A stretch of 64,000 nucleotides of DNA. Source: Escherichia coli. Lineage in GTDB: Bacteria; Pseudomonadota; Gammaproteobacteria; Enterobacterales; Enterobacteriaceae. Both the position numbers and the translations under genes were made by a program. Below are positions 10,884-57,072 of this stretch, piece after piece; within the stretch, counting starts at the first letter, position 1, and each line of letters begins with the position of its first letter. The notes beneath the pieces were generated by a model. That model saw only the letters and a program-made list of their open reading frames with translations, ran no database searches and was not told the DNA's origin. The DNA is taken from assembly GCF_011045215.1 (NCBI RefSeq), contig NZ_CP049201.1; one strand, written 5' to 3'.

Positions 10884-10935
10884 TAAGTGGATTATGCTGC
10901 CATCAGGCAGTGTGATTGCCGGCAGGGATTTCGTT

Positions 10936-11552: not shown

Positions 11553-11632
11553 GAGCAAAATTAAATCAGTGCACAAGGGGAGGCATCTGCGGTGATGGAC
11601 CCCCTGAGATGCAGGCTTCACAGGAGAGAGTC

Positions 11633-12130: not shown

Positions 12131-12151
12131 TTTAACGGATTACGAGAGAAA

Positions 12152-13696: not shown

Positions 13697-13711
13697 GGCA
13701 GGCGTCGGGAA

Positions 13712-15049: not shown

Positions 15050-15699
15050 ATAAACCTGTTATCTCCCGGGCTGAACAGATTTTTTATCCCGGCTGGCTGA
15101 TGGTCAGCCAGCTGCGCAGCGGGCAACCGGTTGAGGATGGTAAGGCCCTGTATCGCCGTGCCTGTCAGCTGGTGAAACAGGCGCGTGAAGAGCTGGCCGA
15201 AGCAGGATTCAGTCAGGAAAACAGTGACACCATGTTGTATGCCTTCTGTGCCCTGCTGGACGAGAGTGTGCTGAACCGCGAAAAAACAGATGATGGCTGG
15301 CACACCTGGCAGCAGGACCCGCTGCAGGCTCATTTTTTTGGTACGCTCAATGCCGGTGAAGAGCTCTGGGAGCGTATTCGTGAGCAACTGAAATTACCAG
15401 CGCCGGATGTGGCGGTACTGACATGCCTCTGCCGTACGCTTCAGCTCGGTTTTACCGGTCAGTACCGGTCGCAGGATGATGAGCGTCGCGAAGATGTAAT
15501 ACGCGCACTGACAGCGCGTGTTCCTGCATTTACTTTCGCACAGGATGCGCCGGTGGTGGTGCGTGCACCGGGTTACCGTGCTGGCAGAACGATGTACTGG
15601 TTGTCATGGGTGGCGGGTATTGTGACGCTGGCTGGTCTCTGGTGTGTGCTTTCTTCTGTGCTTGCAGACCAGGTGGCACGGCTTACCGGACAGGGATAA
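15046..15699 (+). CDS. tssL: T6SS membrane-complex protein TssL (DotU-like)
   Basis: ATG overlaps the tssK stop (ATGA); about 217 aa with a single C-terminal TM helix, as in DotU/TssL. Confidence 0.8.
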   Translation: MNKPVISRAEQIFYPGWLMVSQLRSGQPVEDGKALYRRACQLVKQAREELAEAGFSQENSDTMLYAFCALLDESVLNREKTDDGWHTWQQDPLQAHFFGTLNAGEELWERIREQLKLPAPDVAVLTCLCRTLQLGFTGQYRSQDDERREDVIRALTARVPAFTFAQDAPVVVRAPGYRAGRTMYWLSWVAGIVTLAGLWCVLSSVLADQVARLTGQG

Positions 15700-15701
15700 C
15701 C

Positions 15702-17432: not shown

Positions 17433-17437
17433 TTTTT

Positions 17438-17929
17438 ATGGCAATTCCAGTTTATCTGTGGCTGAAAGATGATGGCGGTGCAGATATCAAAGGGTCCGTG
17501 GATGTTCAGGACCGTGAGGGCAGCATTGAGGTGGTGGCTCAGGAGCACTGCCTCTACATCCCGACGGATAACAACACCGGTAAGCTGACCGGTACCCGTA
17601 TTCACACACCGTTCCTGTTTACCAAGGAAATTGATTCTTCCAGCCCGTACCTTTACAAGGCCGTGACCACCGGGCAGACCCTGAAGTCTGCTGAATTTAA
17701 GTGGTACAAAATCAATGACGCCGGTCAGGAGGTGGAGTACTTCAATACGAAGCTTGAGAACGTGAAGGTGGTGAAGGTTAATCCGGTCATGCACGACATC
17801 AAGAATCCCACCTACGAGAAGCATAACCACCTTGAACAGGTGGAACTGCGCTACGAGAAAATCACCTGGACCTACAAGGACGGCAACATCATTCATTCCG
17901 ACGCATGGAGTGAACGTACCACCGCGTAA
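17438..17929 (+). CDS. hcp: T6SS tube protein Hcp (TssD)
   Basis: 163 aa; MAIPVYLWLKDDGGADIKGSVDV start is the classic Hcp N-terminus; GGAG RBS. Confidence 0.9.
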   Translation: MAIPVYLWLKDDGGADIKGSVDVQDREGSIEVVAQEHCLYIPTDNNTGKLTGTRIHTPFLFTKEIDSSSPYLYKAVTTGQTLKSAEFKWYKINDAGQEVEYFNTKLENVKVVKVNPVMHDIKNPTYEKHNHLEQVELRYEKITWTYKDGNIIHSDAWSERTTA

Positions 17930-17975: not shown

Positions 17976-18097
17976 TTCAGCATCTGTTGGCGGGTGCTGA
18001 AGAAAAAATTCTCAATCCTGAACACAGACCTGATGCGCCTGGGTTACGGCGAAGGGCGGTAGCGTGCCTGACGGTCTCCTGACAGTGAGTGAATAAC

Positions 18098-20785
18098 ATG
18101 GAAAATTCGGCAGCTCTGTTACGTCGTCTTAATCATTACTGTGCCCGTGCACTGGAAGGCGCAGCCTCCCTTTGCCAGACCCGGGCCCATGCAGAAATCA
18201 CCCCGGAGCACTGGTTACTGAAACTGCTGGAGCAGGGGGAAGGAGACCTTACCGTGCTGGGCCGGCGTTATGGCTGGGATATGGACGCGATATGGCAGTC
18301 GCTGCTCGGCTGGCTGGATAACCAGCCCCGTAGCGTACGCAGTCGCCCGCAGCTTGCGCCGTCCCTGAATGCCCTGCTGAAACAGGCCTGGATGGTGGCC
18401 TCATTACAGGGGGAAGAACATATCCGCAGCGTGCATCTGCTGGGTGCCCTGACGGAACATCCGCACCTGGTTCGCTGTGACGGGCTGTGGCCCCTGCTGA
18501 CACTGAGTCAGAGTCAGTTGCAGCGTCTGTCCCCGCTGCTGGATGCGCAGTCTGATGAGTGTCCGGAGAGATTACAGGATGCAGAGCCTGTGCTGCCTCA
18601 GGGAGACAATGTGACCTTTATCGGGCGCCCCGTCGGTGCGGATACGGCGGGTATACCGTCAGGTGACCTGCCGCCTGTGTTACAGAGTGCGCTGGATAAA
18701 TTCACCCGGGACATCACGGCCAGTGCGAGAGAGGGTAAAATTGACCCGGTATCGGGGCGCGATACGGAAATCCGCCAGATGGTGGATATTCTCTCCCGCC
18801 GCCGCAAGAATAACCCGATTCTGGTGGGGGACCCCGGTGTGGGGAAAACGGCTCTGGTGGAAGGGCTCGCCCTGCGTATTGTGGAAGGTAACGTACCGGA
18901 ATCACTCAGACCCGTCACCCTGCGCACCCTTGACCTCGGCCTGCTGCAGGCCGGTGCCGGCGTGAAGGGGGAATTTGAACAGCGCCTGAAAAACGTGATT
19001 GATGCCGTGCAGCAGTCACCGGCTCCTGTTCTGTTGTTTATAGATGAAGCCCATACCCTTATCGGGGCCGGTAATCAGGCTGGCGGCGCGGATGCGGCGA
19101 ACCTGCTGAAGCCTGCGCTGGCGCGGGGTGAACTGCGCACCATTGCCGCCACCACCTGGTCTGAGTACAAACAATACCTGGAACGTGACGCGGCCCTGGA
19201 GCGGCGTTTTCAGATGGTCAGAGTGGACGAGCCGGATGATGAGACGGCCTGTCTGATGCTACGCTCCCTGAAATCCCGTTATGCGGAACATCATAACGTG
19301 CATATCACCGATGAGGCGGTACGTGCTGCCGTCACACTGTCGCGCCGTTATCTGACAGAACGTCAGTTACCGGACAAGGCCGTTGACCTGCTTGATACCG
19401 CTGCTGCCCGTGTGCGTATGAGCCTCGACACGGTGCCGGAACAGCTGACCCGTATCCGTTCACAGCTCGCCTCCCTCGGTATGGAAAAACAGGCACTGCT
19501 GGAAGATATTGCCGTTGGTCATCAGAATCACGGCGAACGCCTGTCTGCCATTGAGCAGGAAGAGAATGTGCTGATGACAGCACGTGATGACCTGGAGCAG
19601 CAGTACGCCCGGGAGTGCGAACTCACCGGTGAGTTACTTGAAAGCCGCAGCGATATTTCCCGCCAGAGTGAGACACATCACCTGCAGCAGGCACTGCACG
19701 ACATTCAGCAGAATCAGCCCCTGCTCAGTGTGGATGTTGATGTACGCACCGTGGCCGGTGTGGTCGCGGACTGGACCGGGGTGCCGTTATCCTCACTGAT
19801 GAAGGACGAACAGACGGAACTGCTGCATCTGGAAAAGGATATCGGCAGACGGGTGGTCGGACAGGACGTGGCACTGGAATCCATTGCACAGCGTCTGCGT
19901 GCGGCGAAAACGGGTCTGACATCCGGTAACGGCCCCCAGGGGGTGTTCCTGCTGGTTGGCCCCAGTGGTGTGGGAAAAACTGAAACGGCACTGGCACTGG
20001 CAGACGCGATGTACGGCGGCGAAAAATCACTGATTACCATCAATCTGTCGGAATATCAGGAGCCCCATACGGTTTCCCAGCTTAAGGGCTCACCGCCCGG
20101 GTACGTGGGATACGGTCAGGGGGGGATTCTGACGGAGGCTGTGCGTAAACGCCCTTACAGCGTGGTGCTGCTGGATGAAGTGGAAAAGGCCCACCGGGAT
20201 GTGCTGAATCTGTTTTATCAGGTATTTGACCGGGGCTTTATGCGCGACGGCGAGGGGCGTGAAATTGACTTCCGTAATACGGTCATACTGATGACCTCCA
20301 ACCTGGGCAGTGACCTTCTGATGCAGCAACTGAGCGAAAAGCCGGAGACAACGGAATCGGAGCTGCATGAGCTTATCCGTCCACTGCTGCGCGACCACTT
20401 CCAGCCTGCCCTGCTGGCTCGCTTTCAGACCGTGATTTACCGTCCGCTGACACAGTCTGCCATGCGCATCATTGTGGAGATGAAGCTTGCACAGGTCTGT
20501 GAACGCCTGCACTGCCATTATGGACTGAGTACATCGGTTGATGAACGTGTGTACGATGCCCTGACATCAGCCTGCCTGCTGCCGGATACGGGCGCCCGGA
20601 ATGTGGAGAGTCTGCTGAACCAGCAACTGCTGCCGGTACTGAGCCGGCAGTTGCTCAGCTATCTTGCTGCCAGACAGCATCCGACGTACCTGTCTCTGAC
20701 GTGGAATGATGAGGATGGTATTGTGATAGCGTTTGATGGAATCAATAGCGATTATCCGCAGGAAAGCATATATGGACAGTGCTAA
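18098..20785 (+). CDS. clpV: T6SS AAA+ ATPase ClpV (TssH)
   Basis: Two AAA+ modules with Walker A GDPGVGKT and GPSGVGKT, Walker B LLFIDEAH and VVLLDEVEKA, ClpB-like N-domain. Confidence 0.93.
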   Translation: MENSAALLRRLNHYCARALEGAASLCQTRAHAEITPEHWLLKLLEQGEGDLTVLGRRYGWDMDAIWQSLLGWLDNQPRSVRSRPQLAPSLNALLKQAWMVASLQGEEHIRSVHLLGALTEHPHLVRCDGLWPLLTLSQSQLQRLSPLLDAQSDECPERLQDAEPVLPQGDNVTFIGRPVGADTAGIPSGDLPPVLQSALDKFTRDITASAREGKIDPVSGRDTEIRQMVDILSRRRKNNPILVGDPGVGKTALVEGLALRIVEGNVPESLRPVTLRTLDLGLLQAGAGVKGEFEQRLKNVIDAVQQSPAPVLLFIDEAHTLIGAGNQAGGADAANLLKPALARGELRTIAATTWSEYKQYLERDAALERRFQMVRVDEPDDETACLMLRSLKSRYAEHHNVHITDEAVRAAVTLSRRYLTERQLPDKAVDLLDTAAARVRMSLDTVPEQLTRIRSQLASLGMEKQALLEDIAVGHQNHGERLSAIEQEENVLMTARDDLEQQYARECELTGELLESRSDISRQSETHHLQQALHDIQQNQPLLSVDVDVRTVAGVVADWTGVPLSSLMKDEQTELLHLEKDIGRRVVGQDVALESIAQRLRAAKTGLTSGNGPQGVFLLVGPSGVGKTETALALADAMYGGEKSLITINLSEYQEPHTVSQLKGSPPGYVGYGQGGILTEAVRKRPYSVVLLDEVEKAHRDVLNLFYQVFDRGFMRDGEGREIDFRNTVILMTSNLGSDLLMQQLSEKPETTESELHELIRPLLRDHFQPALLARFQTVIYRPLTQSAMRIIVEMKLAQVCERLHCHYGLSTSVDERVYDALTSACLLPDTGARNVESLLNQQLLPVLSRQLLSYLAARQHPTYLSLTWNDEDGIVIAFDGINSDYPQESIYGQC

Positions 20786-37951: not shown

Positions 37952-38353
37952 ATGAAGAAAATTATCTGTTTTCTGTTCGTGGGGCTTTTATTTTCGGTTC
38001 AGGCAGATGCTGCGCGGGGAAGAAAACCCTGCTCGGGTGCTAAAGGTGGTATTTCACACTGCACGTCAGACGGACGTTTTGTCTGCAATGACGGAAGTCT
38101 GAGTCAGTCGAAGCGCTTTTGTTCCGGTTATGGCGTGGCACCCGACAAACGTCAGGTGGAATCACCGGTCACCACGAAGCCGGTTCAGAAGAAAAAATCA
38201 GCGGCTGTCCGGAAGGTGTCACAACCGTCGGTGGCCGGGAAAAATGAGGTTGTACCGGTCACTGAACCCCGTAAACCCACCTGTGCGCCGCTTTATATGG
38301 CCAGCAAACCTGGATTTACACATCTGCCCATTTGTTCCGGTAATCAGTATTAA
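37952..38353 (+). CDS. Secreted Cys-containing small protein (signal peptide)
   Basis: 133 aa; signal peptide MKKIICFLFVGLLFSVQADA; mature part has Cys-containing Gly-rich N-terminal segment and Lys-rich middle. Confidence 0.5.
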   Translation: MKKIICFLFVGLLFSVQADAARGRKPCSGAKGGISHCTSDGRFVCNDGSLSQSKRFCSGYGVAPDKRQVESPVTTKPVQKKKSAAVRKVSQPSVAGKNEVVPVTEPRKPTCAPLYMASKPGFTHLPICSGNQY

Positions 38354-38508
38354 TCTGACACTGAAATAGCAGAGAAATCTGTGCTCAGCCTGCAGTTAAT
38401 TCTGTACTGGTGGGCATCATAAAGCCGGACAGCCTTCCGGGTATAAATATTTCCGGAGGGCGTTAATCAAAGATATTCAGTTACTGAGAAGGAAAATAAA
38501 GGAAAGTC

Positions 38509-39752
38509 ATGGCAGGAAGAAAAAAAGATGATAATGCAGCGGGATTTGTTCTGATTTTAGTTTGCGTTATTCTCTGGGGGATTTATGTGGCGGTCAGGGC
38601 GCTGATAAATCTTAATGAGCGCTTTATTGATGCAGTATCGAATCCGGCAGGTATTATTGGTTTGTTTTTGGGTTTGCTTACTGTATTTGCAATTTTACTT
38701 CGTTTTTTTATTTACCGGAGACTCAGAAAGAAAACAGCAGCCTTTGAGCAGGCCGTTTCAGAGCTGGTTCAGAGAGAACGGGGTTTTAATGAAACTGTCA
38801 ATGCCGCGATAGCCCGGGGAATACGACAGGAAAAGGAGCAACTAGCCAGACGTCGTGAGGATTTCATACCGCCAGACAGAAGGCCAGCCGTGCAATGCAA
38901 CGGATTGTTGATTCCGCTTGGAAATTTAAGGCGAAGACTCTGCTGGCTGGTGTAACGATTAATAACTGGCAAAGCAAATATGACCAGCTTCGTAAGGAAA
39001 GAGAGGCTTACGCTGCTGTCAGTGAGAAAATTGCCTTTCTTAACCTGGAAGATAATTCTGACTGGGAGAGTGTCAGGCAACAGTTTCTGGACAAAGTGGC
39101 GTTGCTGGAAAAAGCGCAGGAAGAAAAGGAATATCAGGCAGAGCTTAAGCGTCAGATGCGTGAAGAAAAAGAGCGTCAGGATGAACTTGACCGGCGCCAG
39201 CGGGAAGCGGAAGAGGAAGAGCGGCGTCTTGCCGAGCAGCAGAAACTGATTGAAGAGGCGCTGCGTGCCGCAGAAGGGGCTCACAGGGAGGAGCTGGAGA
39301 AACAACGCCTGGCGCTGGAACAGAAAATTCAGGAAGCGCATGCGCAGTACGAACGTGCTAAATCCATGGCTCAGCTTACGAAACAGGGGCATGTTTATAT
39401 CATTTCGAATATTGGTTCGTTTGGTGAGGATGTCTTTAAAATTGGCATGACCCGACGGCTGGAACCCATGGACAGGGTCAAAGAGTTAAGTGGTGCTTCT
39501 GTTCCGTTTGATTTTGATGTTCACGCCATGATTTCCTGTGATGATGCGCCTGCGCTGGAAAAAACACTTCATGACAGTCTGGAAAAATACCGCATTAACA
39601 GGATTAACCTGCGTAAAGAATTTTTCCGCGTGAAGCTTGAGAAAATCATTAATGAAGTGGAGCGTCACCACGGGCAGGTGGAATATGTGGCTGACCCGGC
39701 GGCGCTGCAGTACCTGCAGAGTCTGGAGTGCGCGGAAAATGAAGCTGCCTGA
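38509..39752 (+). pseudogene. Membrane-anchored coiled-coil protein with C-terminal T5orf172/GIY-YIG-like domain (DUF4041-type), frameshifted as given
   Basis: ORF 38509..38955 (two TM helices then helical region) and ORF 38895..39752 (coiled coil then GHVYIISNIGSFGEDVFKIGMTRRLEPMDRVKEL...FDFDVHAMI) are adjacent, overlap, and lie in different frames; both frames read as natural protein up to the 38860..38900 interval. Confidence 0.6.
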
Positions 39753-39944
39753 CAATCAGTGTTCTGATTTTATTCCGGCCGGATATAACAGAAGGGATAT
39801 CTGCACATATCCTGCAGCATGGTTCACGGTATTCCGGTCATGTTAATGATTCTGTTTTTTATTTCTGAATAAAACGACACCCACGATATAACGTCGTGGG
39901 TGTCGGTGGTGATTATTTTTTTGTTCACAGATTAAGGTGCGTTT

Positions 39945-41732
<1,788 letters not shown>

Positions 41733-41797
41733 TACCGGATTATTTCTTTATTCCGGGCTTTCACCATACTGTTATTATCAGGTTTATTTAATTCGCC

Positions 41798-42103
41798 ATG
41801 AACCCGTTATTTAACGATATTCAGATGCGTCTTTTTTATCTGAACCACTCTCCGTACTCCTGGCACTGGAATGTCAGATTCAGACCTCAGGAAGCCGTAT
41901 ATATTGGCAACGATACCTGTCATATCACCATTACCTGTAATCAGTCAGGTTTTCATTTAACCCGGGACGGACAACGGCTGTTCACTGAGCGTTATATCAG
42001 AAACCTTAATGAGCTGTTACCGGTTCTGAAACGGCGGTGGGATGTGACACCGGCAATCATCCGTGCAGTGGAATACCTTTCCCGGGTCCCGGTATCACAC
42101 TGA
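41798..42103 (+). CDS. Hypothetical protein (101 aa)
   Basis: ORF only; no recognisable motif. Confidence 0.3.
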   Translation: MNPLFNDIQMRLFYLNHSPYSWHWNVRFRPQEAVYIGNDTCHITITCNQSGFHLTRDGQRLFTERYIRNLNELLPVLKRRWDVTPAIIRAVEYLSRVPVSH

Positions 42104-42157
42104 CATTCTTTCCGTAACTGTTAATCATGATTTAATACAGCAACACTGAATCTGCCG

Positions 42158-43522
42158 ATGACTTCTGAAGTGAAACTGAAAACCGGTGGTGACCCCCGGT
42201 CATTACCGGATTATACTGCCCTACGTGATGAAATCAGCAAACTGACCCACCCGGCACGCCCGGATGTGGACTGGCGTTATGTGGAAACACTCTGCCTGCG
42301 TCTGTATGAACACAATGGCGTGGAATTACAGACGGCATCCTGGTACACCATCGCCCGGATGCATACAGCAGGGTTAAGTGGCCTGAATGAAGGGCTGGCT
42401 CTGATTGTGGCGCTGACCCGGCATCACTGGTCAGTGATGTGGCCGCTGAATACCCACGCCCGGCTGGAAATTATTACCGGTCTGTTCAACCGTCTGCAAA
42501 AAACGCTCCGGGCCATGCCACCGGATAACCGTGACAACCTGCCTCAGCTGTATCAGACCGAAACATTCCTGAAGGTACTGAGTGACATATTTATCCGACA
42601 TGAGCTGAAGCAAAACAGCCGGCTGGTGTTACTGGAAAACATGGTGAAGGGATATATCATTCGTCTGGAGAATCAGCCTTTACAGGGGGATGATTCGTCC
42701 CCGGTAACGCTTCCTGCTCAGGCACTCCGGTCTGATGCACCGGATGTGCAGGAACATCAGACCCTGCCGCACTCCCGTCTGGTGTATATTGTTTCTGAAA
42801 CAAAAGCAGAACCCTCCCCCTCCCTTCAAAAGTCTTCACCCACGTTTCTGAAACCGTTTGTGGCTGGTGTCTGTGCGGCATTGCTGGCTGTCAGCATGGC
42901 CATTCCGGGATGGCAGTTTCTGACACAGCCATCACCGGCGGAGCAGCAACTCAGGGCGCTGCTGACCCCCCCACCGGATGTGCTTTCAGCAGACCAGATG
43001 ACACAGCTCAGCAGAATACCCTCACTGTTAAATCATGTGTCAGAGTGGATACCCCTTTCCGGTCAGCAGATAACGCGACTGACAGAACTACCGCCGGCAT
43101 ACAACCTGCAACGCAGTGCGCAGCTGCTGCAGCAACTGATGGTGCTTTTTCCCGATAATCCCCGTGTCCAGGAAATGGTGGATAACTGGCAGAAGAGTGT
43201 AATGAGCCGTGCGCTCCCGGAAGAGGCGATGACGGGCTGGAACGAAGGTATGACCCGCTTACAGCAGCTGGCTGAGCGCCTGAACCGTCTGGATGAACAG
43301 CGGGGAAAATACATAACGGTCAGTGAACTGAAAACGGAGGTGTTTGGCATCATGCAGGCTTTTAACCGGCATATCCCGGCAGAAGAGCAGTTACGTCGCT
43401 ATGGCGAAGCCCGCAACCAGAATGGCAGTGAACAGCAGCAAAAACAGGCTGAAATGGCGCTGAATCAGTTGATTAACCGTTATCAGATGGAACACACAGG
43501 CAATCAGGAGGGGCAGCCATAA
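42158..43522 (+). CDS. ImpA_N-domain protein (TssA-related, TagA/VasL-like) with internal TM helix
   Basis: 454 aa; N-terminal GGDPRSLPDYTALRDEISKL...PDVDWRYVETLCLRLYEHNGVELQTASWYTIARMHTAGLSGLNEGL matches the ImpA-related N-terminal domain; hydrophobic segment FVAGVCAALLAVSMAIPGW mid-protein. Confidence 0.65.
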   Translation: MTSEVKLKTGGDPRSLPDYTALRDEISKLTHPARPDVDWRYVETLCLRLYEHNGVELQTASWYTIARMHTAGLSGLNEGLALIVALTRHHWSVMWPLNTHARLEIITGLFNRLQKTLRAMPPDNRDNLPQLYQTETFLKVLSDIFIRHELKQNSRLVLLENMVKGYIIRLENQPLQGDDSSPVTLPAQALRSDAPDVQEHQTLPHSRLVYIVSETKAEPSPSLQKSSPTFLKPFVAGVCAALLAVSMAIPGWQFLTQPSPAEQQLRALLTPPPDVLSADQMTQLSRIPSLLNHVSEWIPLSGQQITRLTELPPAYNLQRSAQLLQQLMVLFPDNPRVQEMVDNWQKSVMSRALPEEAMTGWNEGMTRLQQLAERLNRLDEQRGKYITVSELKTEVFGIMQAFNRHIPAEEQLRRYGEARNQNGSEQQQKQAEMALNQLINRYQMEHTGNQEGQP

Positions 43523-43846
43523 TGGCTGATTAGATAGGGTAATGTAAAATAATGCAACAATAACGTTTACACAATAAGGTGTAAGCTGAAATTAACTCGT
43601 TCGTGGAATAACCTAATGAGTAAGGTTCTGCTACTTTGAGTTGGATAAGTTATATAGAACAGCAGTCCTGATAGTCAGAAAGAGTTTTTTCTGGGGTGTA
43701 TTTTTATAGGGTGTTAATCTGGTATTTAATTAAAAGACGGAGTTATTTATACTGACATATCAAATAAATAATTTTTAACGACTTTTCTATTTGGCTGATT
43801 GTTTTGCGTTCTTTTTATAAGGTGTTTTATTTTTAAAGGTTTTTTG

Positions 43847-45662
43847 ATGAGATTACATAGTCTTAAAATAAAAGGATTTAAACGTATCCAAACTGCAAGA
43901 GATAATATTTGGTGATACCACGTTTCTCATTGGTGCTAATAATGCCGGTAAAAGTTCTGTTCTGAAGGCCGTTGAATGGCTGCTTTCAGATAAAAAGAAG
44001 ATGGATATTGACTTTTTTTATTGTGAATCTGATGAATCACGTGAAAATAAAATAGCAACTGAGTCAATTGTACTCGAGGCTGAATTCAGAAATGTACCGG
44101 AAGAGGCATTGCAATGGAGAGGTTTTAGGGGGAGGATATTTGAATATAATGCTGGAAATAGTGGGGAAACGGGAAAGTCTCTGATTTACAGGAAAACATA
44201 TGAACCGGGGAATGATGTTGTTATTGAATTGAAATCTTTTTCAAGAAAATTGAATACACGATTTGAAACCGCAGTCAGAGCATCTGACTTGGTAGAAGCT
44301 GGTGCTGATGCCGAAATCATCACTGAGTATTTTCCAGATCAAGCTAAAAGATTTAATGCAGCTGACAAAGAAAAATTAAAACTCATTGATGAATTATGGG
44401 ATATTTCTGATGATGAAGAAGTTTGGGATAAAAACCCGGGGGGAATTGCAGGTGTTGTGTTATCCCGATTACCTGCTTTTCTATTAATACCAGCAGAATC
44501 AGCTTCTCATGAAATTGACACAAAAGCGGGAGCTTTGCAGAAAACGCTGAATGAACTATTCAAAGATGTTCGTGGCAATTCAGAAAATTATAGAAAGGCC
44601 CAGGAGTCTCTGAATGCGCTTGCGAAGGAATTAGATCCTGCAGATGAAACGTCAGAATTTGGTGTGATGATGGGAGAACTTAACAGTGTATTAAGCGGAG
44701 TTTTTCCAGAGTCAAAGATATATGCTACGGCTGATTTATCTGATCCTGATAATGTTCTCCTACCTTCATTTTCGGTTGAAATGTCGAGTAACATTAAAAC
44801 ATGTGTATCGAATCAAGGAACCGGAATGATTCGAGCAGCTGTATTTGGATTGTTGAGATTTCGGCAGCAATGGCTGAGAAAAAAAGGTAAGGATGATGCT
44901 GCTACCAGAAGTCTTATTATTGGATTTGAAGAACCAGAAATTTATTTACACCCTAGTGCAGCAAACCAGATGAGAGATTTGATTTATGAATTATCAGATG
45001 GACAGTCACAAATAATAGCGACAACACATTCACCTTATTTGATTGATTTGTCGAGAAAACCCCGACAGGTACTTAACCGATTCCATTATGATAATTCACA
45101 TACGACAGTCTACCCGCTCTCAGTGACAGAGAAATTTCTGGCCTTGCAGGATAATGATAAAGATCAGATAAAAATGCTGATTAAGCTGGATGATCATGTA
45201 TCAAGGATCTTTTTTACCCGAAAAGTTGTTGTTGTCGAGGGAGATACAGAGGAAGTCATTATCAAAGAAGCTATCCGCAGAATGCCAAAAGCAATGCGAA
45301 ATAAGTTGCTTGCATCAACAGAGCTGGTTAAAGCACGTGGCAAGGCTGCGATTATCGGCCTGGTGAAGTATCTTAGCGCGCTGGATGTTGATTTTTTTGT
45401 TATCCATGATCGTGATGGCGGAACTCCCGGTGCGGAGATCTTTAATGCGCCGATTGCTGCTGCTGTTGGGGATGCCAGCAAAGTTATCATGCTGGAAGAG
45501 TGTATTGAGGATCTGCTGGGGTACCCAGCTCCAAGTGGTGAAAAACCGTTTAAGGCGTATCAGGAAGCACAGCGCTGGGGAGATAACTGGAATGACGTGC
45601 CTGAACCATTAAGGAGAATACTGACTAGAGCTTTTTCCCCATTTATCGATTTGGCTGAATGA
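43847..45662 (+). pseudogene. OLD-family ATP-dependent endonuclease (ABC-type ATPase plus Toprim), N-terminal frameshift as given
   Basis: ATG at 43847 encodes MRLHSLKIKGFKRIQTARDNI then TGA at 43913; shifting frame at 43908..43913 gives FGDTTFLIGANNAGKSSVLKAVEWLL (Walker A) continuous with the 44001..45662 ORF; downstream TTHSPYLIDLS and Toprim-like VVVVEGDTEE...FFVIHDRDGG. Confidence 0.75.
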
Positions 45663-46077
45663 GCAAAAGGGAAAAACTCTGATAAGTAGAGAGTTGAAGA
45701 TGAGCGCTTGGTGCATTGCCAGCACTCTTTTGATTGAAGATCTTTATTTCAGTGAAAGTGGTGCCTGGTTTGCCTTGCCTAAACGTATCATAAAGTCGGC
45801 ACACCATACCTGATGCTGCTATGCGATGTTCCTGCTGGATGTGATGTCGGAAAGAAAGGCGGAATATTACTGCAATAAGGTAGCAGTCCATATCAGACGC
45901 GGGCCTTTCATGATGAACAGGAGAATAACTTGAGTTGCCGGGAATTGCCGCGGCCATACGACATAATCGGGCCAGAGGAAAACACCAGATGGCCTCAATA
46001 TCTGACATTGTCAGAGACCTTTCGCGGCTCGGCTGGACGGATGAACGCATTGGCACTGAGCGGGGCAAGTGCTAAGG

Positions 46078-46135
46078 CTGAAACAGATTAGCGGGCTGAC
46101 GGGCCTGTTTCAGGAAGAGGATTTCAGCCCGGCAT
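46078..46135 (+). repeat. Diverged copy of the gene tail seen at 1..74 (26-codon fragment)
   Basis: CTGAAACAGATTAGCGGGCTGACGG-CTGTTTCAGGAAGA--ATTTCAG shared with 3..53; reads ...LKQISGLTGLFQEEDFSPA then TAG; in-frame TGA just upstream, so not an intact gene. Confidence 0.5.
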
Positions 46136-46181
46136 AGACGCTTCGCTGATACTGTTATTGTTATTTCAGTGAGTTGATGTT

Positions 46182-48816: not shown

Positions 48817-49572
48817 TTAACTCGTTTTTTCGATGCTTTCCACTACCGGGGGGTTTTTCCTCAGGGACTCTCCCTGAAGGACCAGTCTGTGTGAGTTATG
48901 TACCAGTCTGTCCAGGATGGCATCTGCTGTTGTTGGGTTCTCCATCAGACCATGCCATTTATCTACCGGGAACTGGCTTACCACTATCGTGCTGCTTTGA
49001 CCGTAACGATCTTCTATGAGCTCCAGAAGGTCATTACACTGGGCGTTACTTAACTGTTCCAGCCCCAGATCGTCCAGGATTAGAACCTGTATTTTTTGCA
49101 ACTGTTTCAGATATTTCAGCCAGCTGCCATCAACACGTCCCTGAGCCAGTTGTTCCAGTAATCGCCCGGTTCTACAGTACCGGACGCTGTGTTTCTGTCG
49201 ACATGCCTGTTCGCCCAGCGCATTGGCTATCCAGCTCTTGCCACATCCTGTCGGACCGGTTATCAGCAGGTTTTTCCTGTGGGTTATGTAGTGGCCGTTC
49301 AGCAGTTCCCTCATCTGTTCAGCCCGCAGACCTCTTGAGGCCGGATAGCGCAGCCCTTCCGGTGTTGCCTGATATTTCAGGCCGGCATTTTTTCTCAACC
49401 GTGCCACACGGCTGTTTTCCCTGCTCAGAAGCTCGTCATCAACCAGCAGCGTCAGCCTTTCCTCGAACGACAGTTCGTCGTAGGTCTGAGGCGTTTCCCG
49501 CTGCCGTATCAGGCTCCCGGCCATCGCCGGGAGTTTCAGTTGGGTCAGTTTGTTTAACAGATTATCACTCAT
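48817..49572 (-). CDS. istB: IS21 helper ATPase IstB
   Basis: Start at ATG giving MSDNLLNKLTQ; Walker A GPTGCGKS and Walker B VLILDDLG; the ORF-track N-terminal extension is judged spurious. Confidence 0.85.
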   Translation of the reverse strand: MSDNLLNKLTQLKLPAMAGSLIRQRETPQTYDELSFEERLTLLVDDELLSRENSRVARLRKNAGLKYQATPEGLRYPASRGLRAEQMRELLNGHYITHRKNLLITGPTGCGKSWIANALGEQACRQKHSVRYCRTGRLLEQLAQGRVDGSWLKYLKQLQKIQVLILDDLGLEQLSNAQCNDLLELIEDRYGQSSTIVVSQFPVDKWHGLMENPTTADAILDRLVHNSHRLVLQGESLRKNPPVVESIEKTS

Positions 49573-49588
49573 TCGGTTGTTCCTTCTG

Positions 49589-51235
49589 TCAGTGGTAGTA
49601 GCCAGGACCACGCAGGTTTTCATGCTCTGAAGCATATGCCGGATGTTGTTCGCCCTGGCGGGATAACGGAAGCTCAACGTTATCCCGATGATGACGCAGC
49701 AGATTGTCGATAAAGCGTCTGTCCGGGGCGTTATAGTGCAGGGCAACGTAACAGGCCTTTTCCAGCCGTTCCGGGCCGTATTTTTTCTGAAGTGCCAGCA
49801 GACCCAGGACTGCACGGTAAGCCAGCTCCGGATGGGGTTTGGCTTTCAGCATGGATTCAACCACCCGGCCTGTGGACGGACCTGTACGGTTTCCCTGCTC
49901 GATAAGGCGTTCCGGTGTCCATGTCCCATGCCGCCGGTGGCGTTCTGGCATGTGAAGCGGATTGGTTGTGTGTTTATATTCATGTGTGCTGCGCGGATGT
50001 TGCGCCACACACTGCCCCTTGTGCCAGAGTTGTACCACCGACTGCCCCGCCTTCAGTGACAGACGCTGACCGACCAGTTCGTGTGGAACGGAGTACCAGT
50101 GACGGGCATATTCAACGTGATAGTCAGGGCCAACCTTCACGGCTTTGTATTCCGTGTATTCATAAGGTGCCAGAGGCAGCGGAGAGAGTGCTGGCGCATC
50201 CAGTATGCGGAAGCGTTCTGCACGGGTTTGATTGCCGTACCCCTTCATTGGCCGGTTATTCATGTCTGTCAGTAACTCCCGAAGGCGCGCATTCAGCGCC
50301 CTGAGCGTGTGGAAGGTTTCATTACGGATGCGGGCAAGAAGCCATCGTTCGACGATGAGGACGCCGTTTTCTGCTTTTGGTTTATCTTTAGGTTTGCGTG
50401 GTCGGGCCGGGATAATAACCGTGCCATAGTGCTCAGCCAGCGCCTGATAACTGTCGTTGATGACAGGCTCATAGCGATCGGCTTTTTTCACTGCGCTTCT
50501 GAGGTTATCGGGGATGAGCAGCTTCGGTACGCCGCCCAGGAAGGTCAGGCAACGGCTGTGGGCATTTAACCATGACATCATGTCCTGACCTTCGCACGCT
50601 TCAACATAGGTATAGTTGGACGCCCCCATTACAGCCACGAAGATTGCCACGCGGCGTATCTCTCCGGTGTCCGGATTAATAACAGGGACCGTAGGACCAC
50701 AGAAGTCGATAAAGAGCTTTTCGCCAGCACGATGCTCCTGTCGCATGGAGAGGCGTCGCGTTTTTTTCCACTTCCGGTAGCAACGGCAGAAGTGTGAGTA
50801 TCCCATCGCTTTGTCACCCGCCTGTGCCTTGTATTCCATCCACAACAGTTGGCGCGTCACGCCAGGTTTTCTCATTTCCGTATCGAAGTACAGCATGTCA
50901 GGCATAACAAGCTCCGACGCAGAGGTGTCTTTGGGCGGGTAAATGAGTTTCTCCAGCGTGTCATGGGATATATCAGCAGGTAATGGCCATGACAGAGAAG
51001 AGGCTTTGAAGCGTGCAAGAACCTCAAAAACGGTTGAGGCGCTGATGTGTAATGTCAGCCCGATACAACGGTTAGTCAGCTTCTGGTCGAACTTGAGCTG
51101 AAGGATCTTAAAACAGGTTTCCATAGTGCTCCTGGATTTTCTCTTTCTGGACATTGCCGTCTCCATTGGTTTAAACACGGCAATGAAGACTGTGGCGAAA
51201 AGAGTTAATTCCCGGAGTGACTGGCAGGATGCCAA
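49589..51235 (-). CDS. istA: IS21 transposase IstA
   Basis: 548-aa ORF upstream of and adjacent to istB; start codon uncertain within the first 40 codons. Confidence 0.85.
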   Translation of the reverse strand: MASCQSLRELTLFATVFIAVFKPMETAMSRKRKSRSTMETCFKILQLKFDQKLTNRCIGLTLHISASTVFEVLARFKASSLSWPLPADISHDTLEKLIYPPKDTSASELVMPDMLYFDTEMRKPGVTRQLLWMEYKAQAGDKAMGYSHFCRCYRKWKKTRRLSMRQEHRAGEKLFIDFCGPTVPVINPDTGEIRRVAIFVAVMGASNYTYVEACEGQDMMSWLNAHSRCLTFLGGVPKLLIPDNLRSAVKKADRYEPVINDSYQALAEHYGTVIIPARPRKPKDKPKAENGVLIVERWLLARIRNETFHTLRALNARLRELLTDMNNRPMKGYGNQTRAERFRILDAPALSPLPLAPYEYTEYKAVKVGPDYHVEYARHWYSVPHELVGQRLSLKAGQSVVQLWHKGQCVAQHPRSTHEYKHTTNPLHMPERHRRHGTWTPERLIEQGNRTGPSTGRVVESMLKAKPHPELAYRAVLGLLALQKKYGPERLEKACYVALHYNAPDRRFIDNLLRHHRDNVELPLSRQGEQHPAYASEHENLRGPGYYH

Positions 51236-51327: not shown

Positions 51328-52817
51328 CATACCCTTACCCACAAGTTTTCTGGGCTATTTCTATGGCATTAATTGACAGCATTAATTGTGTTAATCCTGA
51401 CCATATAGTCTTAGGGCCTGGAGGCGAATCATTTTTTCTTGCCAGATATCCTCCTAATCTTGCAAGCATTAAAACCGCCGTTCTTATATTCGGTATGTTT
51501 TCAGGTGGAGGCGTATTCTCTACCAATATCCAGAGATACTCATATTCTTTCTTTTCGAAAATTAAATCACAGGGTTCCTCCGGAACCATTTTATACAATG
51601 AGCTAAGATAAAGTATTCTCCATGAGATTATAAGGTATAAGGCCAGACAGTTCCTTGTGCGTTCAAATGTCTCAAGTTGTAATTTCTCAACCTGACATCC
51701 GCTTTTTAATACCTTAAAGAAAACTTCAATCTGCCAGCGTAATAAATACCATTGAATAAGCTGTGCGGGTTCCGTCAGCTTTTCTGGAGGTACACTACTC
51801 ATTAGCCACCATACTAATGGCTGGACACTTTCTGGAGCATTTATTTCCTTTGCAAGTAATACAGTTACCGTTACCGGAGAACAACGTAACTTTCCTCTTC
51901 GACCGGTGGGTGGATGTAGCGTCAACCTTGCTAAGCGTAGCTCCTGCTGGACTTTGCGGGAAGGTTGTCCTCGTCCTTCCGGAAGGGTAAACTCAATTAT
52001 CTGCTGTGGCAAAATCTGCATCATTTTTTCATTCAGGAGTAATGAGTCTCTTTTTCCTGATGAATTCAGTATAGCCCGGTTAATGCTCTTCATTCTTACG
52101 AGCCAGTCAGCCTTTATCCCACTTTCATTTTCTGCACTCTCAAAGAGGTCGTAAATATCACCTTCACGGTCTGAAACAGAAATTATCTGGGTATCAGGAC
52201 AGGACCTAGCCAGTTCTGTTGCTTTTTTATATCCTTCTATCCACCGTCCTGTTTCTTTCTCACTGATATGTTTCCTGTGAAGTGAATCATTAGTTATTTC
52301 TTTACGACTTTGTTTCTGAGTTTTGAGTTCTTTTCTGAACCATTGATAATCATCATAAACCCCTAAGCAAATACCTGAATCACTTATAACCAATTGAGGG
52401 TGAATAAACAAATCTCGCTCATTTTCATGTCGTCTGGGACCGACGCCCTGTTTCTTTTTTTGACCAGAATAATTTAGTTCAGTCGTATCCTGTAAAACCA
52501 GAGCCCGTTTAAACTGTTTAGTCCTTTCGATGATATTTTTCTTATGGGGAGCCATGATTTTATCGGCTGAAATTTTATCACTGGAAAAGCAACGATAAGC
52601 AGCTTTTGTCTCACTCCAGGTACGGCAGGATACGGGAATACTTTCCTTTGGTGAACGGCTAAGCACACTGAGAACGTGCTTTATTCGCTTTTCGAGCCTG
52701 ATATCACCAACATTCAGAGATTCCAGCTCCTTAATAACCCAGTTTTCCATAGTTCCTCTAAATTATGGTTAATTTATCAACAGAATAACATCACTCGGAT
52801 TTATGGGTAAGGATATG
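51328..52817 (-). mobile_element. IS4-family (IS50-like) insertion sequence, copy B
   Basis: Inverted duplicate of 440..1929 with the same 14-bp terminal repeats and the same 9-bp flanking repeat (GAATGCCAA on this strand at 51319..51327 and 52818..52826). Confidence 0.75.
51335..52750 (-). CDS. IS4-family transposase (identical to 507..1922)
   Basis: Identical 471-aa translation to the copy at 507..1922. Confidence 0.85.
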   Translation of the reverse strand: MENWVIKELESLNVGDIRLEKRIKHVLSVLSRSPKESIPVSCRTWSETKAAYRCFSSDKISADKIMAPHKKNIIERTKQFKRALVLQDTTELNYSGQKKKQGVGPRRHENERDLFIHPQLVISDSGICLGVYDDYQWFRKELKTQKQSRKEITNDSLHRKHISEKETGRWIEGYKKATELARSCPDTQIISVSDREGDIYDLFESAENESGIKADWLVRMKSINRAILNSSGKRDSLLLNEKMMQILPQQIIEFTLPEGRGQPSRKVQQELRLARLTLHPPTGRRGKLRCSPVTVTVLLAKEINAPESVQPLVWWLMSSVPPEKLTEPAQLIQWYLLRWQIEVFFKVLKSGCQVEKLQLETFERTRNCLALYLIISWRILYLSSLYKMVPEEPCDLIFEKKEYEYLWILVENTPPPENIPNIRTAVLMLARLGGYLARKNDSPPGPKTIWSGLTQLMLSINAIEIAQKTCG

Positions 52818-53658
52818 GAATGCCAAACCGTGATCGATTCAGATGCCATTTTGCAGTTATACACTATTGAGTATTATATTGTTATGAAAATATCTGTACT
52901 TATGGAATATTTAATTCTGATGATGGGGCTCTGGTTTGTTGTATGGTTAATTACGGACTGGTTACCTCATATCTGACGGAAAGTGGTATCAGTGTGTATT
53001 CGCATTGACCGGACATCGACATATAACGAATTACGTTCCGGACAAAACTCTCCTGCAGGAAAGGGTAACATTGTATTTTAAACATATTATTCAACCAGTC
53101 ATAAGCATAAACCGACCGCCGTATGTAGCCATTAAGCCAGTATTGGTAACGAAGATACCCACCTTTTCAAAAAGGAAGTGGATAAAAGATAACGAAAATG
53201 CGAAGAGTTGATTAATACATTGAAACAAAATTCATTAATGATGAACTTGGAGAAAAGCTCCATCAAAATACGACACGACCTGTCGTAATTTGTGTTAGCC
53301 AGGAAAGAATATCTACTACTCACTAAAATGATTTAGTGCTGAAAATATTTACAAGCCAATAAATTGACTGGTATTACGGAGTAACGCCCAGGCTATGTTA
53401 ACGAACCCGCTGTTTTATTGGCTCAAAAAACATATCCCAGAGATGTTCAGCCATACCCTCGTTAGTGAGCAAGGTATCCCCTTAGTAGCCAGGGCTGAAG
53501 ATGCCCATTGATGGGCGAAAACCAAGGATCTGGCCGTTAGAACAGTTATGTCGTTAAACACATCACCACCATATGCCATCCGGTTCACTTCGTCGGCCAA
53601 ATTAGTGTGATATTCTTTCCAGAAATGCTGTTGTATCCACGACATAAGGCGATGATTG

Positions 53659-56600
53659 ATGGAGCAGTCTCTCAATTTTGAAATGTTGCGCAGCCAGTGG
53701 CCGGAACTGGCTGAACTCGCGTGTATGGCGGAACGCTATGTTCACTCCGATCCGGAAAGCTGTCTGGTCAAGCTGCGCAACTACACCGAATTGATGGTGC
53801 GCTGGTTGTATCGTCAGGAGCGGTTGCCGGAAGGTATTAAGGCTAATCTTTACGATTTAATGAATGCTGATGTCTTTACCAGCATGATGCCGGAAGCCAT
53901 CATCATGAAAATGGATGCGCTGCGTATCCATGGCAACCGTGCCGCGCACGGCGGACATATCAAAGCTAAAGATACTTACTGGCTGCTCAAAGAAGCGTAT
54001 TTGTTGGGAATTTGGCTGTATGTTCGCTACGCCCACGGTAATGTTGATGACTGCCCCAAATTTACACTCCCTCCATTAACACAATCTTCAGGTCGTGCAG
54101 ATGAAAAACGTCTGGAAGATGCAATCAGGGCTCAGGATGAAAGCCGTGAGCGCGAACTGGCGCTGCAACGCGCACTACAGCAAGAACAGGAAAAGGCCGA
54201 ACACCTCACTCAACGCCTGAATGAAGCCAGAGCGCGTAACCAGCATGTTGCCGATATTCTCTCTATTGATGAAGCGGAAACCCGCCGTCGCCTGATTGAC
54301 TCTCGCCTGCTTGCTGCTGACTGGAATGTAGGCGAAGACCTTAAAAATACCGATCAGGTTACGCAGGAACATCCCGTTAAAGAACAACCTACCGCGACCG
54401 GAGACGGTTATGCGGACTATGTCTTGTGGGATGAGGCACACAAACCGCTGGCGGTGGTGGAAGCAAAAAAAACCAGCGTCAATGCCGAGCAAGGACGAAT
54501 TCAGGCCCGGCTGTATGCAGACTGGCTGGAAAAAGAATACGGCCAGCGTCCGATCATCTTCTACACCAACGGCTATGATATCTGGCTGTGGGATGACCAT
54601 AAAACTCATGGTTATCCCCCGCGTCGGGTGTTTGGCTTCTACAGCAAGGAAAGCCTGCAATATCTTATTCAACAGCGTGAAACCCGTCTGCCGCTGAACA
54701 ATGTGCTGCACGTAAAGGATAACGAAGGTAAGGCCGTTGCCGGACGTTTGTACCAGCTTGAAACCATTGCTCGTGTCAGCGAACGGTTTACCAATAAATA
54801 TCGTCAGTCATTAATCGTTCAGGCCACCGGCACCGGTAAAACCCGTGTAGCGATTACACTGAGCAAACTGATGATAGATGCCCGCTGGGTAAAACGCGTC
54901 CTGTTTCTTTGTGACCGCAAGGAATTACGTAAACAGGCGGCGAATGCCTTTAATCAATTCACCAATGAGCCGCTGTATGTAGTTGGAAAATCGAAAAAAG
55001 CAGACAGGCAGAACGCCAGGATCTACATCGCCACCTATCCAGGCATGATGAAAATCATGGACCATTTCGATGTCGGTTATTTCGATTTGATCATCGCCGA
55101 TGAATCCCACCGCTCTATCTACAACGTCTACGGCGATCTGTTTAAGTATTTTGATGCCCTCCAGATTGGCCTGACGGCCACGCCGATTGACATGGTAAGT
55201 AAAACCACTTTCGGCCTGTTTGGTTGTGAAGGACGTATTCCTACCGCCAACTACAGCCTGGAAGATGCCATCGCCGATAACAATCTGGTTCCCTATGAGG
55301 TTGTCACGCACACCACAGAATTCCTGCGGGAAGGCATCAAACGGGAGAAATTAAGCGACGCACAAATCCGCGAGCTGGAAGAACAAGGCATAGATCCCAA
55401 TACGCTGGAGTTTGATGGCAAGGTGCTGGATGAGGCGATCTACAACAAAGACACCAACCGCTATATCCTGCGTAACCTGATGGAAAATGGCCTGAAAGAT
55501 CGGGACGGCCAGTTGCCAGGTAAAACCATCATTTTCGCCCGTAACCACAAACACGCGCTGCTGTTGAATGAATTGTTCGACGATATGTACCCACAGTTTG
55601 CCGGGCGCTTCTGCTAGGTCATCGACAATTACGATCCCCGTGCCGAGCAACTGATTGATGATTTTAAAGGGCTGGATGAAAGCACCAACAAAGAGCTGAC
55701 CATCGCTATCTCCGTTGACATGCTCGATACCGGTATTGATGTCCCGGAAATTGTGAATCTGGTCTTTGCCAAACCGGTCAAATCAAAAGTGAAGTTCTGG
55801 CAGATGATTGGCCGTGGTACGCGCCTCTGTCCGGGGTTGTACGGTTACGACGATAACGGCAAGCCGCTGGATAAACAGAAATTCCGCATTTTCGATCACT
55901 GGGGCAATTTTGAGTATCACGAACTGCATACCGAAGAGGCCGAAGTCACAGCGACAAAATCGCTTGCACAAAAACGCTTCGAAGCGTGGGTTATGCTGGG
56001 GGCCGCTGCGCAACGTAAATTCGACAAACAGGCGGTGGATTTAGTTGCTCACCAGCTTCGCGAGCAAATCAACGCACTGGATGAAAAGTCGATTGCCGTA
56101 CAGGAAAAGTGGCAGCAAAAAGCGCAGTACAGTGATGCAAAGGTGCTGCGCCAGCTTTCTCCGAAAACACAGCAGGATCTGCTATCTGTTCTGGCCCCGC
56201 TGATGCAGTGGCTGGACGTACGCGGGCAAAGCGATGCCATACGCTTTGATATGGATATTCTGGCGGCGCAAACTGCCCGTTATACCAACCCGGAAGAGCT
56301 GGATGTGCTCTGGCCGGTCATCGTCGAAAAAGTGGAGCGCCTGCCGTCGCATTTGGCGCAGGTGCAACAGCAGGGACAGCGAATCAATCAGCTTCGTGAT
56401 TTGGGCTGGTGGAAGCAAGCCAGTCTGGAAGAGCTGGAGGATATCCGCATTCATTTGCGCGGTATCATGCACCTGATGGAAAAAGACGCGACGCCGAAAT
56501 TTGGTTCTATACAGGTGGATATTACCGAAGATGCGAACCTGATCCAGACGGAAACCCGCAAAACCAACATTCGCTCGATTGATTTCAAACTCTATCGCCA

Positions 56601-57072
56601 GCAGGTTCAGGGGGCACTGGAGCCGCTGTTCCAGCAAAATCCGGTGCTGAAGAAAATCCGCAACGGCGAGCCAGTCACGCAAAACGAGCTGGATGAACTG
56701 GCGAAGCTGGTGCTGATCCAGAACCCCAACGTTGATATCCGGGCACTGAAAGAGTTCTATCCGCAGGCAACCGCCAGCCTGGATAAACTTTTGCGTACCA
56801 TCATCGGGATGGACAGCGACGCGGTGGAAGTGCGCTTTGCTCAGTTCGCCGCTGATAACAGTCTGACCAGCCAACAACTGCGCTTCCTGTCATTGCTGAA
56901 AAACCACATTCGCGATTACGGCACCATTGAAATGCGGCAGCTCTTTGAACAGCCTTTTACGCATATCCACAACGAAGGCGTTACCGGTGTGTTCCCTGAT
57001 ATAGAGCAGATCGCCCGCCTGCAAAAGATAGTCGAAGAGCTGGGTGTTGTGACCGACGTAGCGACGGTATAA
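53659..57072 (+). pseudogene. hsdR: Type I restriction enzyme R subunit HsdR, interrupted by an in-frame TAG at 55615..55617
   Basis: ORFs 53656..55617 and 55720..57072 are in the same frame and the codons between them read on as HsdR (VIDNYDPRAEQLIDDFKGLDE...); helicase motifs QATGTGKT (Walker A), DESH, FWQMIGRGTRL present; likely a CAG to TAG change. Confidence 0.8.

Follow-up and report, generated by a model that had tools for sequence, protein, structure and literature searches.

We analysed a 64,000-nucleotide stretch of an Escherichia coli genome (contig NZ_CP049201.1, assembly GCF_011045215.1; hereafter the window), in which a co-directional block of genes at 38509-45662 on the plus strand lies between a type VI secretion system (T6SS) gene cluster and an IS21 element. 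The block comprises a T5orf172 nuclease-like gene related to SNIPE (PD-lambda-1), a NERD nuclease domain fused to a UvrD-like helicase, a small open reading frame (ORF) named orf101, tagA and an OLD-family ATPase-Toprim gene (Table 1). A preliminary description of this DNA, made from the letters alone, listed these ORFs and the IS21 element downstream, all of which were recovered here, and its domain calls (T5orf172, NERD plus UvrD, ImpA_N and OLD ATPase-Toprim) hold by Pfam or PADLOC, some of them in intact orthologues. It regarded the block as a defence island, in which helicase and ATPase either form a non-canonical Gabija-like arrangement or are independent single-gene systems stacked together. 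Our results make it probable that the block is a composite, namely the 3' accessory module of the T6SS with two independent nuclease genes and, behind it, a class 1 OLD gene that was acquired separately, in a decaying copy.

The SNIPE-like, NERD-UvrD and tagA genes of the block keep company with the T6SS in other genera. In Serratia marcescens the order is TssF-TssG-TssJ-TssE, DUF1283, T5orf172 (414 aa), NERD-UvrD, TagA and OLD, and in a Pectobacterium-labelled assembly TssE is followed by a 156-aa ORF, YdcA (called in one of the two contigs), T5orf172, NERD-UvrD and TagA, then by housekeeping genes. In Cedecea neteri a T5orf172 gene remnant of 150 bp lies between TssE and NERD-UvrD, which TagA follows; the assembly GCA_025215155.1 has TssE, a 159-aa ORF, NERD-UvrD and TagA with the T5orf172 gene absent, and Enterobacter bugandensis shows an equivalent arrangement without the helicase. 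Identities to the E. coli proteins were 74-79% for the SNIPE-like protein at this equivalent position, 59-66% for NERD-UvrD, about 75% for TssE, 60-81% for TssF, 46-72% for TssG, 47-59% for TssJ, 38-44% for TagA and 87% for OLD (Serratia only). Pairwise matrices of six lineages further showed that the TssE-to-TagA module, helicase included, was exchanged between two T6SS core lineages, and between Cedecea and the Pectobacterium-labelled locus the helicase is 91%, TagA 84% and TssF 62% identical. Since order and conservation are kept with the T6SS across genera, 38509-43522 is part of the T6SS cluster, whose type has it as a conserved accessory module at the 3' end, and is not island cargo; a defence island between T6SS and IS21 is the wrong description for it, and the OLD gene is later cargo.

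The ImpA_N protein that had been counted among the defence-like genes is itself a T6SS protein. With ImpA_N (6e-17) and VasL (1.7e-37) by Pfam, a transmembrane (TM) segment at 229-256 and T6SS genes upstream, it has the combination of ImpA_N, hydrophobic segment and C-terminal VasL within a T6SS cluster that defines the accessory protein TagA (PMC6745524). RefSeq annotates tagA as a pseudogene in three fragments (ImpA_N, 'POTRA' and VasL) in strains 042 and E70 (locus 10260-11637), an annotation we rejected since the 042 ORF is intact with 455 aa; the 042 gene is the experimentally studied TagA. The small orf101 upstream gave no Pfam, PADLOC or NCBIfam match; among E. coli loci its conservation is 95-97%, and since Serratia, Cedecea, Enterobacter and the remaining loci lack it, it was seen in E. 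coli only.

In enteroaggregative E. coli (EAEC) 042, EC042_4547 and EC042_4548 have been called T6SS accessory genes (2025 EAEC 042 preprint). The same preprint placed an RfaH ops2 site between them, with RfaH-dependent read-through toward EC042_4549, co-transcribed with the T6SS. The hairpin and T-run in the spacer between the SNIPE-like and helicase genes of the window is kept in 042, E70 and strain S2. The exact ops2 motif GGTAGNNT was not found in this spacer; it occurs 9 times in the whole window versus about 20 expected by chance, and no ops2 coordinates were assigned. A GGTAGCGT motif is present at 18058-18065, between hcp (17438-17929) and clpV (18089-20785), which is the place of the RfaH ops1 site in the preprint.

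The OLD gene has a different profile. Its GC content is 0.40 and it stands behind a spacer of 30% GC, versus about 50% in the neighbours, and while the flanking proteins of E. coli and Serratia are 38-75% identical, the OLD proteins reach the 87% given above, with nucleotide homology ending at the ORF ends. Elsewhere, an 89%-identical OLD lies alone in an integrase-bounded island of Salmonella, an 80%-identical one amid remnants of insertion sequences (IS), 67%-identical ones in the defence hotspot of Klebsiella P4-like satellites and a 69%-identical one amid Pseudomonas housekeeping genes. No helicase was found within 8-9 kb of these orthologues (66-89% identity) in the four contexts, and no conserved helicase, retron or AriB partner accompanies them, as would be anticipated for a single-gene system. 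Among 5426 complete E. coli genomes, to which all genome counts refer, the full-length helicase is present in 614 and OLD in 14. The slot 3' of tagA is also variable: it holds OLD in the window, E70 and C5, Kiwa (KwaA/KwaB) in 042 (11842-13235 of the locus extract), a Mokosh-like helicase in JNEC-KY177 (10281-12962 of the extract), and in Serratia OLD followed by a PD-Lambda-4_B-like gene and QatABCD (12280-17809 of the extract). The region just 3' of tagA is a defence-gene hotspot at the end of the T6SS cluster, thus the recurrence of OLD at one place in two genera needs no link to the helicase. Given GC content, divergence level, lone copies elsewhere, rarity in E. coli and the variable slot, OLD appears to be separately acquired single-gene cargo of a class-1-like type, and the notion of independent single-gene systems holds in essence for OLD and probably for the other two nuclease genes as well.

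Table 1. Features of the 38509-45662 block and its surroundings in the window
Feature	Position	Strand	Remarks
ydcA-like small protein, 133 aa	37952-38353	+	first gene 3' of tssE; NCBIfam PRK10040 at 1.9e-24; hydrophobic residues 3-22
SNIPE/PD-lambda-1-like gene	38509-39752	+	split into ORFs 38509-38955 (148 aa) and overlapping 38895-39752 (285 aa)
Hairpin, 12-bp stem, then GGTGGTGATTATTTTTTTG	39875-39905	+	terminator-like scan match; spacer between SNIPE-like and helicase genes
NERD-UvrD nuclease-helicase, 595 aa, intact	39945-41732	+	Pfam NERD and AAA_19/UvrD_C; PADLOC C3a187
orf101, 101 aa (EC042_4549 equivalent)	41798-42103	+	no family match
tagA, 454 aa, intact	42158-43522	+	ImpA_N, TM segment and VasL
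AT-rich spacer 5' of OLD	43523-43846	.	GC 0.302 vs 0.48-0.54 in the T6SS block
Class-1-like OLD ATPase-Toprim nuclease, pseudogene here	43847-45662	+	longest ORF 44001-45662 (553 aa)
IS21 istB	48817-49815	-	segment 48717-52847
IS21 istA	49589-51235	-	segment 48717-52847
IS4	51335-52750	-	segment 48717-52847

The class of this OLD is indicated by its intact orthologue in E70, which has AAA_15 at 1-399 and OLD-like_TOPRIM at 455-523 (Pfam). PADLOC scored it higher as Old (2.1e-66) than as AriA (1e-41) or GajA (1.7e-32 at best), its sole match to an OLD structure was the class 1 TsOLD (PDB 6P74, 2e-18), and no GajA structure chain was matched at E<=1e-3. An ABC ATPase with Walker A together with a Toprim domain, the hallmark of class 1, is thus present in the E70 protein and incomplete in the window, where the alignment with the 604-aa E70 gene places the true start at ATG 43847 and shows an extra A at 43897/8 that stops the frame after 22 codons. 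Deleting this A restores a 604-aa ORF; from the 553-aa ORF, residues 1-51 are missing and with them Walker A (GANNAGKSS), whose lysine is required for P2 Old activity in vivo. The OLD family assignment of the preliminary description therefore stands, for a gene that begins further upstream than the frameshifted ORF and has lost Walker A.

The SNIPE-like gene is broken as well. Its 285-aa ORF matches PADLOC PD-Lambda-1 at 5.8e-88, and the intact 414-aa E70 orthologue matches T5orf172 (9.8e-17)/MUG113 by Pfam and PD-Lambda-1 at 4.5e-88 over hidden Markov model (HMM) positions 189-476; a TM scan found two hydrophobic segments, at residues ~7-36 and 42-70, in keeping with a membrane anchor. When aligned with its unbroken 414-aa counterparts in E70 and 042, the gene shows a 1-bp deletion (one A) near 38862, which changes GAGGAATTT to GAGGATTT and separates the TM region from the nuclease domain, thus the membrane-anchored coiled-coil T5orf172 architecture described earlier exists in the orthologues, but no single ORF of the window joins anchor and GIY-YIG/T5orf172 nuclease. 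ORF 38895-39752 would encode the coiled coil and the nuclease domain without the membrane anchor. Since high toxicity has been reported for TM-less SNIPE, this ORF is presumably silent or its product inactive. PD-lambda-1, renamed SNIPE, is a single-gene system of proven defence activity, and the protein, a GIY-YIG nuclease of the inner membrane, cuts phage DNA as it is injected (Vassallo 2022; bioRxiv 10.1101/2025.11.03.685801). The 414-aa SNIPE-like protein keeps a constant length at 75-80% identity in at least 10 enterobacterial genera, and a protein of prophage phiP27 is 64% identical to its residues 117-413. An AlphaFold2 model built from 23 close homologues reached a mean pLDDT of 56, with the nuclease domain below 50, and was not used.

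The helicase gene, on the other hand, remains intact. Its 595-aa product carries NERD at residues 17-108 plus AAA_19/UvrD_C (Pfam) and matches PADLOC C3a187 'NERD+UvrD' over its full length (2.5e-141); D50, E64 and K66 of a PD-(D/E)xK nuclease, Walker A at G243-T250, D349/E350 of Walker B and the M1-A2 start are conserved across 40 relatives. A word-indexed homologue search gave E. coli proteins only, at 90% identity or more, and an exhaustive search of representatives was used instead, which led to 80 loci of other species with relatives at about 40% identity, whose flanks were checked to 10 kb. Within 10 kb of these relatives, OLD was found in 2 loci, T6SS genes in 1 and a SNIPE-like gene in none, and de novo clustering of the ORFs within 5 kb gave no partner common to more than 8 loci, those 8 belonging to closely related genera. 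Plasmid pZH48-2 (91.5 kb, E. coli) carries the helicase gene alone at 93% nucleotide identity (7054-8802 of the locus extract), flanked by a RelE/ParE-NadS toxin-antitoxin pair, a DUF6710 gene and sodC, and no T6SS, tagA, SNIPE-like or OLD gene was found near it. In O157:H7 and other Shiga toxin-producing E. coli genomes the helicase gene is cut by IS66.

How closely the two nuclease genes are bound to the secretion system is a question of its own. The tssJ-tssE-ydcA stretch was recovered at megablast level (at least 80% coverage) in 39 E. coli genomes, versus the 614 with full-length helicase, and in E. coli S2 an intact helicase gene stands beside frameshifted orf101 and tagA, with no T6SS core gene over 9 kb on the upstream side. 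Many E. coli genomes likewise keep helicase, orf101 and tagA without T6SS core genes and with orf101 and tagA frameshifted. Because either gene can be lost singly, the helicase is commoner than the T6SS stretch, stays intact beside a frameshifted tagA and occurs alone on pZH48-2, and the SNIPE-like protein has a relative in phiP27, we favour the view that both genes are autonomous, although physically and transcriptionally embedded in the cluster.

Alternatively, the SNIPE-like and NERD-UvrD proteins might be functionally tied to T6SS activity, either in nucleic-acid defence against phage and DNA from lysed neighbours or by acting on the T6SS machinery itself. At least six lineages keep the place between tssE and tagA, Serratia, Cedecea and the Pectobacterium-labelled locus have a helicase ORF that overlaps tagA, and the SNIPE-like protein, with its 414 aa in at least 10 genera, is conserved like TssE and more than TssF, TssG, TssJ and TagA; the exchange of the 3' module, helicase included, between core lineages (91% and 84% versus 62%) and the RfaH-dependent transcription that runs with the T6SS in EAEC (2025 preprint) point the same way. 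However, each gene has been lost in some lineages that keep T6SS genes and tagA, the helicase far outnumbers the tssJ-tssE-ydcA stretch in E. coli and stands alone on a plasmid, and relatives of both families are widespread outside T6SS clusters, including in prophages. Moreover, mutation of ops2 merely reduced sheath assembly, which was explained by lower tagA expression (2025 EAEC 042 preprint). A functional tie is thus unlikely in our view. The broader proposal that the two genes are long-standing, selected components of the T6SS cluster in Enterobacterales, co-transcribed with it to arm cells against phage and DNA from lysed neighbours, with the 3' end serving as a docking slot for OLD, Kiwa, Mokosh-like and Qat genes, seems equally doubtful.

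It could also be argued that the lesions are sequencing or assembly errors and that the living strain carries each of the three defence-like genes in intact form. Besides the two frameshifts, hsdR of the type I restriction-modification system is split into in-frame ORFs (53656-55617 and 55720-57072) by a CAG to TAG change near 55615, whereas the C5 gene is intact with 1121 aa; hsdR is the third inactivated defence gene of the island, and NERD-UvrD and tagA remain intact. An artefact would be in keeping with indels that are both single A residues and with intact genes in the closest genomes (C5 and E70). However, the indels lie in runs of one or two A's, with no long homopolymers, the third lesion is a substitution, the T6SS ORFs compared are all intact with TssF 100% identical to E70, and OLD has been split or disrupted by IS, independently, in most of the other 13 E. 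coli carriers. Errors at all three places are therefore quite improbable, and we read the frameshifts and the hsdR stop as real decay and the locus, on its sequence, as a decaying copy rather than a functional multi-gene system. Programmed frameshifting of OLD or the SNIPE-like gene is improbable, as the orthologues found in E70, C5, 042, Serratia, Enterobacter and the Pectobacterium-labelled loci are single ORFs.

The pairing that had drawn attention to the block, in which NERD-UvrD and OLD would be a non-canonical Gabija-like two-component system with the helicase sensing or processing DNA ends and OLD as the executor, we consider highly improbable. While the two proteins do have family ties to GajB (PADLOC 5e-21, helicase) and GajA (1.7e-32, OLD), the order helicase-TagA-OLD recurs in Serratia and a NERD-UvrD gene adjoins a P2-type Old in Acidovorax sp. 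Leaf191, the best models of the OLD are of class 1 (PADLOC Old, PDB 6P74) with no GajA structure match, and as already noted in the preliminary description, helicase and ATPase are not adjacent: they are 2.1 kb apart (helicase end 41732, OLD start 43847) with orf101 and the T6SS gene tagA between them, in an order opposite to gajA-gajB. The co-occurrence across genomes that the pairing predicts was not seen, with OLD in 14 of the 614 helicase-bearing E. coli genomes and any OLD within 10 kb in 2 of the 80 loci of helicase relatives, where no neighbour is conserved. OLD orthologues, moreover, lack a nearby helicase in four contexts, OLD is absent where the helicase sits in the T6SS cluster of Cedecea, GCA_025215155.1 and the Pectobacterium-labelled locus, and it differs from the helicase region in GC content and divergence level. 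Taken together, these sequence comparisons argue against a functional NERD-UvrD/OLD pair.

Under the composite reading, the locus would be made of two units. The first (37952-43522) would be the 3' accessory module of a Sci-1-type T6SS, with ydcA-like, SNIPE-like, NERD-UvrD, the small ORF and tagA, which encodes the sheath stop-and-hold factor; the second (43523-45662) would be an AT-rich, separately acquired, single-gene OLD of class 1 type in the variable slot after tagA. The three nuclease genes would putatively function separately, each on its own. Judged from its homology with SNIPE, the SNIPE-like protein may be located in the inner membrane and cleave phage DNA on entry, ATP-driven superfamily 1 (SF1) translocation may bring the PD-(D/E)xK nuclease of NERD-UvrD onto DNA, and OLD would be an ATP-dependent Toprim nuclease like P2 Old.

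Several observations weigh against this interpretation, in addition to the possibility of sequence errors considered above. OLD lies 3' of tagA in both a subset of E. coli and Serratia, and in Acidovorax sp. Leaf191 a full-length P2-type Old (11833-13563; PADLOC Old 4.4e-186) begins 15 bp after the NERD-UvrD gene (10001-11818 of the locus extract), so that some link between the two genes is unlikely but conceivable. Among the 80 loci this adjacency is unique, with an IS-like gene just downstream; when the Acidovorax locus was compared by tblastx with the remaining 79, the output was mostly noise and was not used to judge insertion of the OLD. Pfam DUF4041 was not detected in the intact SNIPE-like protein or in 120 close homologues, although the PD-Lambda-1 HMM does align with the protein from HMM position 189 onward, and DUF4041 is needed for SNIPE function, as are the TM segment and the nuclease domain (bioRxiv 10.1101/2025.11.03.685801). 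Distant NERD-UvrD relatives are often found amid housekeeping genes (three sampled contexts plus synteny in Xanthomonadales), and because these contexts look like housekeeping neighbourhoods, a defence role of the NERD-UvrD family is putative. NERD-UvrD as a defence-island gene in general was considered and not adopted, the three contexts and the Xanthomonadales synteny being housekeeping-like.

The surroundings of the block are as follows. On the 5' side lie tssF, tssG, tssJ, tssE and the remainder of the T6SS cluster, and the first gene after tssE is the ydcA-like gene, whose N-terminal hydrophobic segment is signal-like and whose orthologue is named 'YdcA family protein' in RefSeq; the Pfam YdcA family also occurs at the equivalent position in Enterobacter. 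On the 3' side follow a PerC-like gene, two ORFs without assigned function, IS21 istA/istB, IS4 and the type I restriction-modification system. The region is about 96% identical to other E. coli genomes, and its closest relative, strain C5, is without the IS21 and IS4 segment. The C5 locus contains a partial tandem duplication (8717-11674 of the extract), in which a fusion of the initial ~155 codons of OLD to the 3' portion of the helicase gene precedes another orf101 and another tagA and, after these, the complete OLD gene; an IS110 is inserted after the first helicase copy. Judged from the E70 annotation, ibrA/ibrB-like remnants (PAPS reductase and IbrB-like) are likely at 45663-46180; an ibrA/ibrB-like pair is intact 3' of Kiwa in 042. 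A second IS4 transposase ORF (471 aa) with identical HMM scores lies at 507-1922 of the window and adjoins IS110 and IS66 transposase genes.

The idea of a new Gabija variant is therefore not upheld, and of the three defence-like genes this strain has two in disrupted form. The components are mostly of known kinds or close variants of them; what is new is the conserved way in which they are linked to the T6SS cluster, and no description of such a linkage for a SNIPE homologue and NERD-UvrD was found in the searchable literature. This linkage is the sole part of real interest: a homologue of a proven anti-phage nuclease and an uncharacterised nuclease-helicase are kept inside a T6SS operon across several enterobacterial genera, with conservation that equals or exceeds that of most T6SS proteins compared, a context that, if the linkage is functional, would connect contact-dependent killing with nucleic-acid immunity. 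EC042_4547 and EC042_4548 of EAEC 042 offer a genetically tractable test case. The class 1 OLD subclade, with its many natural single-gene contexts, can be used to test stand-alone defence, which is listed as an open question in the OLD field (PMC10568477).

Compared with known systems, the SNIPE-like protein shares with SNIPE an N-terminal membrane anchor, a long helical middle and a C-terminal GIY-YIG/T5orf172 nuclease. It differs by having two TM segments in 414 aa, versus one TM in ~490 aa in SNIPE (two TM segments occur in 7% of SNIPE homologues; bioRxiv 10.1101/2025.11.03.685801), by the undetected Pfam DUF4041, likewise in close homologues, and by a gene fixed inside a T6SS cluster across genera and not on mobile elements, frameshifted in the window. 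The NERD-UvrD protein has the architecture of C3a187 and matches its HMM over the full length; C3a187, however, is an accessory cluster beside type III CRISPR-Cas, recorded at three loci with no demonstrated function (Shah et al. 2018, PMC6546367), and is not a validated system, while the window gene is surrounded by T6SS genes, tagA and OLD. Like Nhi and AbiO-Nhi, it joins a nuclease domain and an SF1 helicase in one polypeptide, and NERD has been listed for 'Nhi-like' (PMC10952713); however, its helicase is of the UvrD/PcrA type, AbiO matched the window protein at 2.2e-6 over ~90 residues and Nhi matched the Serratia orthologue at 2.8e-5 with no stretch passing alone, which does not place it in the Nhi/AbiO family. 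With the TagA of EAEC Sci-1, the window protein shows no notable difference, being 88% identical to the 455-aa ORF of 042 and having ImpA_N, TM segment and VasL 3' of tssE, as a T6SS gene and not a defence gene. The OLD resembles class 1 members (P2 Old and the Thermus scotoductus OLD, 6P74) in its ABC-type ATPase and Toprim and as a single gene with no conserved partner, but its identity with P2 Old is only ~24%, across 55% of its length, and the window copy is without Walker A through the frameshift. Finally, Gabija combines GajA, a class 2 OLD, with GajB, a UvrD-like helicase, and both superfamilies are present within 6 kb on one strand of the window, but here the genes are non-adjacent and in reversed order, the OLD is class-1-like, the helicase is fused to NERD, and co-occurrence is not conserved.

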